A stretch of 64,000 nt of DNA from Salinicoccus sediminis (lineage in GTDB: Bacteria; Bacillota; Bacilli; Staphylococcales; Salinicoccaceae): NCBI RefSeq assembly GCF_000986795.1, contig NZ_LAYZ01000003.1, positions 3,055 through 67,054 of the forward strand, in the 5' to 3' direction. Below, one piece after another: positions 12,001 through 15,000 of this stretch; position 1 is the stretch's first letter, and each line of letters opens with the position of its first letter. Position numbers: made by a program.

Positions 12001-15000
12001 GCAAGCGCGCAATGACCACATTTGAACGCTATTTCATCAAGGACAAAGCATCCCATAAGGAGGAAAAGAACCCATACTACCATCTGCGGGAAGACAGTGC
12101 CATGTGCCGCAAGATGCTCGCGGAGTTCGAACTCGATCCGGACCAGGGCAGGATCATCAACGGCCACACGCCGGTGAAGGAAATAGACGGGGAGGATCCG
12201 ATCAAGGCGAGCGGCAAGATGATCGTCATCGACGGCGGCTTCTCCAAAGCCTACCAGTCCACTACGGGAATAGCCGGCTACACACTGCTCTATAACTCCT
12301 TCGGCATGCAGCTTGTCGCCCATCAGCATTTCAACTCCAAGGAGAATGTCCTGCTCGACGGTGCCGATGTGCTCTCTGTAAGGCGTGTTGTCGATGAGGA
12401 GCTGGAAAGGAAGAAAGTACGCGACACCAATATCGGCGAAAAGCTGCAGGAGGAGATCAGGATGCTCAAAAAGCTGATGTCCTACCGGTATATTGAATAG
12501 CGCATGACAGTGCGCTATTTTATCAATTTGGAGATGGACGTGTTATAATCCAATTAATCACATTATTCTTTGACTGACCGTCAAAGGGGAGTAGCGTTGG
12601 AAAAGATGCGTTCTTTTTCAAAATAAAGCCGTCAGTTCATGGAGGAATCCATCGGTTTTATTAGCAGATATTGCTCAGCGAGACCTTTGCCCCCCGGGGT
12701 GAAAGTCTCGTTTTTTGTTACTCTTTCCATATCCCAAAAGGAGGAAGCGATCTTAAATGGCCATTTACCAGAAAAGCATTGGCGCGGTTTTCGATGATGT
12801 GGATACATCAGAAAAAGGTCTGTCGAAACCGGAGGCTGCAGACCGTCTTGAAGAATACGGCTATAACGAAATCAAGGAAAAGGAGAAGGCTTCGACGCTG
12901 CAACTTTTCCTGGAGACTTTCAAGGATGCGATGGTCATCGTGCTCCTCGTCGCGGCAGGTGTCCAGATTGCACTCGGTGAAATTGCGGAATCCGCGATCA
13001 TCTTCCTGGTGCTGATCATCAACGCCGTCATCAGCGTCGTCCAGACAAAAAAGGCGGAAAGCTCACTCGAGGCATTGCAGGACATGTCTGCTCCGGAGGC
13101 GAATGTCCTCCGGGACGGCACAAAGATGACACTGGCGGCAAAAGAGCTCGTGCCGGGGGATATCGTATTCCTCGAAGCGGGGGACTATGTGCCGGCCGAT
13201 GGCCGTGTCATCGAGAGCGGCTCGCTCAAAGTGAACGAGGGCATGCTCACCGGTGAATCCGAAGCGGTTGAAAAAGGCATAGAAACTATCCGGGAAGAGG
13301 CTGTGCTCGGAGACAGGCACAACATGCTGTTCTCGAGTTCCCTGGTCGTATACGGCCGCGGCACCTTCGTCGTTACCGGCACTGCCGAACAGACCGAAAT
13401 CGGCAAGATCGCCGACATGCTCTCCACCGCGGAACAGAAACAGACACCGCTGCAGCTTAAGCTGAACAGCTTCAGTAAAAAGCTCGGCATCGGCATACTC
13501 ATACTCTGTATATTGATTTTTGCCGTACAGGCCGCACGTATCTGGTTTGGCGACAGTAACGCCGATACAACGACGGCATTGCTCAACGCCCTGATGTTCT
13601 CTGTGGCCATTGCGGTGGCCGCCATACCGGAGGCGCTGCAGTCCATCGTGACCATCGTCCTCTCAGTCGGAACGAACAAGATGGCAAAGCAGCACGCCAT
13701 CATCAGGAAGCTGCCGGCGGTTGAAACACTGGGTTCAACGAGCATCATCTGTACGGACAAGACCGGAACACTGACGCAGAATAAGATGACAGTGACGGAT
13801 CACTTCATACCGGACGGCTCCAGTGGCAGTCTGCCGGATAACCCTGAGAATTGGAGTACATCCGAAAGGATGCTCGTCAATATCGGCGTACTCTGCAATG
13901 ATTCATATATCAACAAAGACGGCAATCCGATCGGCGATCCGACCGAGGTCGCACTGATCAACTTTGCGAATGCCGGCAACGGGGATTATGAAGAGATACG
14001 GGACAGATACCCGAGAGAGGCGGAACTGCCGTTTGACTCCGACCGTAAGCTCATGTCCACGGTCCATGAGATTGACGGCACTCCGATGATGCTCGTCAAG
14101 GGCGGACCGGATGTCGTATTCGAACGTGCGGGATATGTCCTCGTGGACGGTGAGGAACGCCCGATTGACGATGACATGCTCCAGAAATTCCAGGATGCGT
14201 ATGAAACATTTTCAGAACAGGCACTGAGGGGACTTGCGTTCGGCTACAGGAAACTCGACTCCACAGATGCCGCAATCACCCATGATGATGAATATGACAT
14301 AGTGCTCACCGGTATCATCGCCATGATGGACCCTCCGCGCGAAGCGGTGTACGGCTCCATCGAAGAATCCAGGAAAGCCGGCATCCGTACCGTCATGATA
14401 ACGGGTGACCATAAGATCACCGCCCAGGCAATCGGCCGTGAAATCGGTCTGATGCAACAAGGTGATATCGCCGTTACAGGCAGGGAACTCGACGATATGA
14501 CAGAGGAGGAACTTGAGGACAAACTGCAAAGCATCTCTGTATACGCCCGTGTATCACCGGAGAATAAAATCCGCATCGTCCGTGCATGGCAGCGCAGGGA
14601 TGTCATTACAGCCATGACCGGTGACGGCGTCAATGACGCCCCGGCACTGAAGCAGGCGGATATCGGCATTGCCATGGGCAGCGGTACCGAAGTCGCCAAG
14701 GATTCATCAGCGATGATACTGACCGACGACAACTTCGTCTCCATCGTCAATGCCGTCGGCGTCGGCCGGACAGTGTTCGATAACATCAAAAAGGCAATCG
14801 GCTATTTATTCGCGGGGAACCTGGGCGCCATCATCGCCATACTGTATGCTGTAACGCTCAACATGCCGAATCCATTCACGGCGCTGCAGCTGCTTTTCAT
14901 CAACCTGGTCAATGATTCACTGCCGGCGATTGCACTCGGCATGGAAAAATCCGAACCGGATGTAATGGACCGCAAACCGCGGGATGTCGATGAGGGGATT

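Follow-up and report, generated by a model that had tools for sequence, protein, structure and literature searches.

In the 64-kb stretch of the Salinicoccus sediminis contig NZ_LAYZ01000003.1 that was analysed (referred to as the window; all coordinates are window positions), an 880-amino-acid (aa) type IIA P-type ATPase is encoded from position 12757 and is preceded by a leader (12556–12756) that is very probably a transcriptional ON riboswitch of the yybP-ykoY (Mn2+) class. The leader contains an aptamer with the sequence and structure of this class, an intrinsic terminator overlaps the aptamer, and both are conserved across homologous loci. The Mn2+ response and the direction of regulation are what we infer from characterised relatives (PMC6649816, PMC11087558). 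An original prediction made from the DNA sequence had proposed a Mn2+ riboswitch with an attenuator ahead of a P-type cation ATPase of 880 aa. Both the open reading frame (ORF) and the regulatory element were borne out, the latter by hallmark nucleotides, an independent covariance model, covariation and mutually exclusive pairing. The following features were located:

10497–12500, forward strand: fbp, class 3 fructose-1,6-bisphosphatase (PF06874), the gene 5' of the ATPase
12497–12523, forward strand: putative intrinsic terminator of fbp, AUAGCGCA-UGACAG-UGCGCUAU followed by a U-rich tail, read from the sequence
12520–12549, forward strand: predicted sigma-A promoter, -35 TTATCA at 12520–12525, 18-nt spacer, extended -10 TGtTATAAT at 12541–12549
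12566–12588, forward strand: 5' hairpin UUCUUUGAC-UGACC-GUCAAAGGG, 9 bp, about -8.3 kcal/mol, part of the minimum free energy (MFE) structure of the full leader
12582–12689, forward strand: yybP-ykoY (Mn2+) aptamer, a four-way junction, from the RF00080 match, the covariance model R1 and covariation
12678–12716, forward strand: intrinsic terminator, stem 12678–12692 / 12697–12711, about -18.7 kcal/mol, followed by U6 at 12711–12716
12737–12744, forward strand: ribosome-binding site (RBS) AAAGGAGG, from the sequence
12757–15399, forward strand: 880-aa type IIA P-type ATPase, the regulated gene, from Pfam and NCBIfam scans

The putative terminator of fbp, which was not flagged by a simple terminator scanner, would make the ATPase gene a separate transcription unit. 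The sigma-A promoter prediction has 10 of 12 matches with the TG present, and the same promoter (TTATCA...TGTTACAAT) as well as the RBS are kept in the syntenic relative L082, a metagenome-assembled genome (MAG) with an 87% identical ATPase. Transcription is predicted to start near 12556. The leader would thus have about 200 nt, close to the approximately 210 nt that had been proposed. A distance of 40 nt had also been given between the hairpin and the RBS; this figure matches the interval between the last U of the run (12716) and the start codon (12757), whereas hairpin and RBS are separated by about 26 nt. Neither the aptamer nor the terminator includes the RBS, which is located 20 nt past the U-run, so that control is transcriptional and RBS sequestration was ruled out as the mechanism.

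The aptamer is composed of the following elements, all on the forward strand:

12582–12587 / 12684–12689: P1.1, six Watson-Crick pairs, directly checked
12588–12591: L1, GGAG
U12592-A12681, G12594-C12679 and C12595-G12678: P1.2, three pairs, directly checked
12597–12606 / 12612–12621: P2, 10 bp
12622–12631 / 12653–12662: P3.1
12632–12638: L3 bulge, UCAGUUC, with A12634 equivalent to A41 of Lactococcus lactis
12639–12643 / 12648–12652: P3.2
12663–12666 / 12672–12675: P4, 4 bp

The segment that had been likened to L1 of the yybP-ykoY motif, CAAAGGGGAGUAGCGUUGG, is located at 12582–12600, and the likeness was confirmed by matches to RF00080 and R1 and by covariation. The conserved L1 strand GGGGAGUAG stands directly 3' of the 5' strand of P1.1 (CAAAGG-GGAGUAGC at 12582–12595), and the GGGAGUA positions are invariant among 34 aligned leaders. 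The conserved C-x-x-C-A of L3 is present (GCCGUCAGUUC at 12628–12638), as is the hallmark CGUCA, and C54, C57 and A58 of L3 are invariant in the same 34 leaders. A12634 falls into the column of L. lactis A41, whose N7 coordinates Mn2+ (PMC6649816). The 3' strand with (A/G)AGAC and the complement of the P1.1 5' strand was found as GCGAGAC-CUUUG at 12678–12689; AGAC is invariant in the 34-leader alignment and in a 23-leader alignment. All family-invariant positions are intact in the window, and the leader fold reached z = -4.9 against dinucleotide shuffles.

Two different covariance models recognised the element. In a local scan with E-value reporting, RF00080 (Rfam 15) matched 12574–12732 with 40.7 bits and an E-value of 7.3e-10, which corresponds to approx. 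1.5e-7 when scaled linearly to the whole window. Other local Rfam matches (a small nucleolar RNA, a Tombusvirus element and a CRISPR repeat) had E-values above 2 and were discarded as noise. For comparison, 80 loci encoding relatives of the ATPase were fetched, many of which contain GGGAGUAG ... AGAC(C/U)UUU upstream of the ATPase gene. From 23 ATPase-leader aptamers, aligned with MAFFT and excluding the window, the covariance model R1 was built. R1 matched 12577–12692 over its full length (1–100) with 44.1 bits and an E-value of 4.2e-9 (64 kb, both strands), the single significant match in the window. The next best match (46167–46205, forward strand; 12 bits, E 0.9) is just a AAAAAAGGGAG ... 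CUUUU hairpin and was judged to be a chance similarity.

For the covariation analysis, the classical pairs P1.1, P1.2, P3.1, P3.2 and P4 were written by hand onto the alignment columns, with shuffles and slid pairing partners as controls. On the plain MAFFT alignment of the 23 leaders, 86% of the cells were paired in comparison to 32–47% in the slid controls. Double changes were counted in 120 cells versus at most 51 in the controls and affected 23 of the 29 pairs, and the observed covariation score was reached by none of 500 shuffles. With 42 sequences in an alignment fitted to the model itself, 91% were paired compared to 31–44%. Compensations comprise G-C/A-U in P1.1 as well as C-G/U-A and G-C/A-U in P1.2, and the window-type P2 and P4 also contain compensatory changes when the window, Oceanobacillus iheyensis and a Thermoactinomyces MAG are compared. 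RNAalifold recovered P3.1 alone from the raw MAFFT alignment of 34 leaders because P2 and P4 do not occur in all leaders, which upsets the alignment.

The strong GC hairpin with a U-run that had been noticed in the leader was confirmed as cgagacctttgccccccggggtgaaagtctcg at 12679–12710, followed by U6. Its 5' arm holds the 3' strands of P1.2 and P1.1 (12678–12689), and with these 12 nt in common the closed aptamer and the terminator are mutually exclusive; alternative folds of the kind expected for an attenuator are therefore present. The terminator state is the MFE structure of the leader with -54.4 kcal/mol, compared to -37.9 kcal/mol for the P1-closed state without ligand, which makes OFF the default. 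The first downstream hairpin likewise starts around AGAC and precedes a U-rich tail in 39 of 41 homologous leaders. The two others are artefacts of MFE folding, as for example the Lactococcus petauri leader (L005) plainly has AAGACCUUUGCCAGAUUUGGCAGGGGUCUUUUU. Between the window and L082, the terminator stem differs at three positions; the stem of L082 could be fully paired by hand, also at the position where the window has a C-A mismatch.

Based on these structures and on the characterised relatives, the following course of regulation is proposed. Transcription would start at the sigma-A promoter near 12556. At low Mn2+, 12678–12689 would pair with 12697–12711, and the resulting terminator with its U6 would stop transcription before the pump gene; in the lineage of the window, the 5' strand of P1.1 may additionally sit in the short 5' hairpin. 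When Mn2+ is high, it would bridge L1 (GGAG) and L3 (UCAGUUC, including A12634), the two helical stacks would dock, and the switch helix P1.1 would be stabilised and withhold the 5' arm of the terminator. RNA polymerase could then read through into the 880-aa ATPase, which is of the type of the Listeria monocytogenes pump LMCA1 and would export divalent cations from the cytoplasm, namely Ca2+ and probably Mn2+.

Aptamers of the same class with Mn2+ ON logic are found at yybP and ykoY (meeY) of Bacillus subtilis and at mntP and alx of Escherichia coli. They control YybP, the TerC-family proteins MeeY/Alx and MntP, none of which is a P-type ATPase, and the riboswitches of mntP and alx act via translation or Rho and not via an intrinsic terminator. 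The L. lactis yoaB riboswitch, a crystallised Mn2+ aptamer with transcriptional ON control, has the same four-way junction (P1.1/P1.2, P2, P3.1/L3/P3.2, P4) as the window, the same L1 (GGGGAGUAGC), the same L3 (GUCGUCA type) and the same 3' strand AGC-AGAC-CUUUG. Its terminator also re-uses the 3' strand of P1.1, and the gene behind it encodes a homologous P-type ATPase. Readthrough in L. lactis is enforced by P1.1 as the switch helix (PMC11087558). The L. petauri ortholog is 63% identical to the pump of the window and bears a leader like that of L. lactis. Compared to yoaB, the window has a longer P2 (10 bp) and a shorter P4 (4 bp), and the 9-bp hairpin 5' of P1.1 is present in the window but not in the Lactococcus leader.

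A yybP-ykoY riboswitch with a terminator is also known from mgtA (caxP) of Streptococcus pneumoniae, where Mn2+ stress activates a PII-type ATPase (PMC6649816). The combination of a Mn-class aptamer, an intrinsic terminator and a PII-type ATPase with Mn2+ ON logic is the same as in the window. The S. pneumoniae aptamer is a three-way junction with UNAAA in place of P4, in contrast to the full four-way junction of the window, and its riboswitch is described as overlapping the RBS (PMC6649816), which in the window lies beyond the U-run. The pairing of riboswitch, terminator and PII-type ATPase is already established in Lactococcus and Streptococcus; the window adds a member and not a new kind of element.

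R1 located the aptamer in 40 of the 80 homologous loci, ahead of the ATPase gene and on its coding strand. The ATPase-linked aptamers of this set (L001–L080) have three architectures. The four-way junction occurs in the window, Lactococcus, the Thermoactinomyces MAG and O. iheyensis; most clostridial leaders have a three-way junction lacking P2; others, e.g. L017, L023, L037 and L051, lack P4 and contain a UGAAA-type linker as in Streptococcus. Clostridium senegalense (L010) carries two complete aptamers in tandem (1037–1159 and 1309–1409; 69.1 and 83.6 bits) ahead of one ATPase gene, which might be a tandem riboswitch whose response is sharper or has two thresholds. In O. iheyensis (L085, 860–1200), aptamer and terminator lie approx. 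220 nt before the start codon of the ATPase, and the long additional stretch of leader contains a further hairpin.

Among the close orthologs, the aptamer is present in the window, L082, the Thermoactinomyces MAG (72%) and O. iheyensis. L082 keeps the whole leader within the syntenic order BCCT-fbp-ATPase-CHAP-UvrA-like. For a 94% identical relative on a JGI metagenome contig (L081), the sequence extends just 79 nt upstream. The closest relatives with a name belong to the Bacillaceae, e.g. Virgibacillus and Oceanobacillus with about 77% identity. The gene of LMCA1, which is 70% identical to the pump of the window (PDB 6zhf, 6zhg, 6zhh, 9euq), has no yybP-ykoY element. At this Listeria locus (lmo0841; L083, 829–1500), where no Mn riboswitch was found, a divergent MarR-family gene lies upstream, which suggests a different mode of control for the same pump.

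Downstream of the pump gene, a 163-aa CHAP-domain protein and a 752-aa UvrA-like double ABC ATPase are encoded on the same strand (15463–18253). The latter is shorter than canonical UvrA and did not reach the UvrA equivalog cut-off. L082 has both genes in synteny, and L081 has the CHAP gene as well. A Pfam scan of ten further ORFs of the window and five neighbours yielded no other metal-homeostasis genes. Two adjacent tRNA genes are located at 57443–57617 on the reverse strand (68.8 and 66.2 bits).

Several observations weigh against a Mn2+ riboswitch at this locus. The RF00080 score is 4.3 bits short of the gathering score (40.7 versus 45 bits), and a whole-window Rfam scan at the gathering threshold reported two tRNAs only and not the riboswitch. 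Of the nine close orthologs sampled, five (Listeria, Bacillaceae SIJ1, Robertmurraya, Halobacillus and Aneurinibacillus) showed no aptamer in a search with the filters turned off. The 9-bp 5' hairpin is in competition with P1.1, and switching might be impaired or lost as a result. The pump is an ortholog of the Ca2+ pump LMCA1 with identical ion-site residues. Finally, the S. pneumoniae mgtA aptamer has a higher affinity for Ca2+ than for Mn2+ in vitro, and Ca2+ compacts it (PMC6649816).

Concerning the Rfam score, the original prediction had named a value under the gathering threshold as a refutation, and formally this case applies; the E-value places the match well beyond chance. The RF00080 model of Rfam 15 treats the GGGGAGUAG strand as unpaired, stops at P4, does not include the 3' AGAC-CUUU strand and contains a long insertion in the P4 loop. 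In the alignment of the window, this loop is stretched over the terminator with non-canonical closing pairs. The L. petauri leader, which is very similar to the crystallised L. lactis aptamer, reached 46.1 bits. The leader of L082 passes the gathering score with 46.8 bits, while 44.3 bits were obtained for the Thermoactinomyces MAG (L006), 39.0 for O. iheyensis and 35.4 for Halolactibacillus (L003). Clostridial ATPase leaders that reach 80–90 bits with R1 were not detected by RF00080, and out of 18 loci with an aptamer according to R1 (L001–L020), a single one was reported at the gathering score. All ATPase-linked members thus lie close to the gathering score, which has no discriminating power in this case; it is an operational cut-off and not a structural feature. 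Since the model is devoid of the 3' strand of P1, leaders like the characterised one are borderline and clostridial members are missed, the score below gathering was not taken as a refutation.

The absence of the riboswitch from five of nine close orthologs indicates that it is not an obligate partner of the pump. The 5' hairpin, for its part, pairs with the 5' strand of P1.1 and the first two G of L1, and in combination with the terminator a 1:2 / 2:3 / 3:4 topology like that of an attenuator results. L082 has the same hairpin with a single loop substitution. A strong version was seen in these two leaders only, whereas most of the 34 others that were examined had a weak one or none; no clear complement was found in O. 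iheyensis (L085) or the Thermoactinomyces MAG. A feature of the family was hence rejected. The hairpin may be an extra lock on the OFF state by which this lineage adjusts the threshold, or it may have formed incidentally. A more far-reaching proposal is a four-segment, double-locked Mn2+ riboswitch in which 1:2 and 3:4 together would be OFF and 2:3 ON, with a raised Mn2+ threshold and with LMCA1-type pumps serving as emergency Mn2+ exporters in the lineages that bear the riboswitch. If this were true, the 5' hairpin would hold the 5' strand of P1.1 while the terminator holds its 3' strand, as in classical attenuators; the proposal as a whole is regarded as doubtful.

The substrate of the pump was addressed by comparison with characterised ATPases. 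The enzyme contains the Pfam domains Cation_ATPase_N, E1-E2_ATPase, Cation_ATPase, Hydrolase and Cation_ATPase_C, and the motifs DKTGT and TGES are visible in its alignment. It matched PDB entries 6zhf/9euq over the full length with 1365 bits and missed the NCBIfam equivalog cut-offs for SERCA (627.6 versus 703.4 bits) and PMR1 (611.4 versus 798.3 bits). None of its sequence features sets transport of Ca2+ apart from that of Mn2+. The alignment with LMCA1 has no gaps over 880 aa, so that the residue numbering can be transferred. E292 (in PEAL), N688, A691, N716, N719, D720 and R795 are identical in both proteins. Based on the LMCA1 and SERCA literature, E292, N688, A691, N716, D720 and R795 are ion-site residues, and A691 and R795 replace the glutamates of SERCA site I, which leaves the single site II. 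A single-site-II arrangement is also found in the SPCA/PMR1 pumps, which carry both Ca2+ and Mn2+. Transport of Ca2+ by LMCA1 has reportedly been demonstrated biophysically; the enzyme is not known to transport Mn2+.

That LMCA1 transports Ca2+ is noted by Martin et al. (PMC6649816), who call the S. pneumoniae MgtA analogous to it and describe MgtA as a Mn2+/Ca2+ pump. MgtA rescues the Mn sensitivity of B. subtilis and also lowers Ca2+ (PMC6649816). By analogy with MgtA, the ATPase of the window is probably a Mn2+-induced, dual Ca2+/Mn2+ pump. The earlier claim of a Mn2+-induced exporter rather than a generic Ca2+ pump thus overreaches, given the gapless orthology to LMCA1 at 70% identity, the same ion-site residues, the several close orthologs that have no riboswitch and the precedent of MgtA.

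The Ca2+ site of the regulated pump also leads to the question of the ligand. If the same fold responded to Ca2+, or to Ca2+ and Mn2+, a feedback loop of Ca2+ efflux matching the substrate of the pump would result. The orthology to LMCA1 and the tighter Ca2+ binding of the S. pneumoniae aptamer are in agreement with such a loop, and because of the latter the in vivo ligand specificity cannot be read from the sequence alone. However, Mn2+ activated readthrough of the S. pneumoniae riboswitch far better than Ca2+ in vitro and was the sole inducer of the reporter in vivo, even with 10 mM Ca2+ (PMC6649816). The L1 and L3 residues of the window are moreover canonical, including the adenine equivalent to A41, and a Ca2+-responsive switch is considered unlikely.

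Even less probable is a decaying aptamer, a relic behind a terminator that is constitutive or otherwise controlled, with the 5' hairpin permanently sequestering the 5' strand of P1.1 and the pump being expressed by leaky readthrough. The RF00080 score under gathering, the loss of the riboswitch in several close orthologs and the competition of the 9-bp hairpin with P1.1 would fit a relic, as would the ligand-free calculation, in which the terminator state is favoured over the P1-closed state by 16.5 kcal/mol. Such a big gap towards the terminator is, though, what would be anticipated for kinetically decided ON riboswitches (PMC11087558). Every family-invariant position is intact and all helices pair, and the whole leader is kept in the 87% ortholog with compensatory changes in the terminator.

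A chance likeness, i.e. an ordinary hairpin of the 5' untranslated region that happens to contain GGGGAGUAG, has nothing but the sub-threshold Rfam score on its side and is effectively refuted by the E-values that two different models gave (7e-10 and 4e-9) and by the full four-helix architecture, which is common to homologous leaders at orthologous loci.

The riboswitch would give a regulation to an enzyme that is otherwise generically named a cation-translocating P-type ATPase. It adds a data point to the connection of LMCA1-type pumps with Mn2+ stress in many Firmicutes (40 of the 80 loci), a connection that is patchy among the closest orthologs. As a by-product that is more useful than the single instance, the comparison indicates that annotation by the RF00080 gathering score would miss many ATPase-linked riboswitches.

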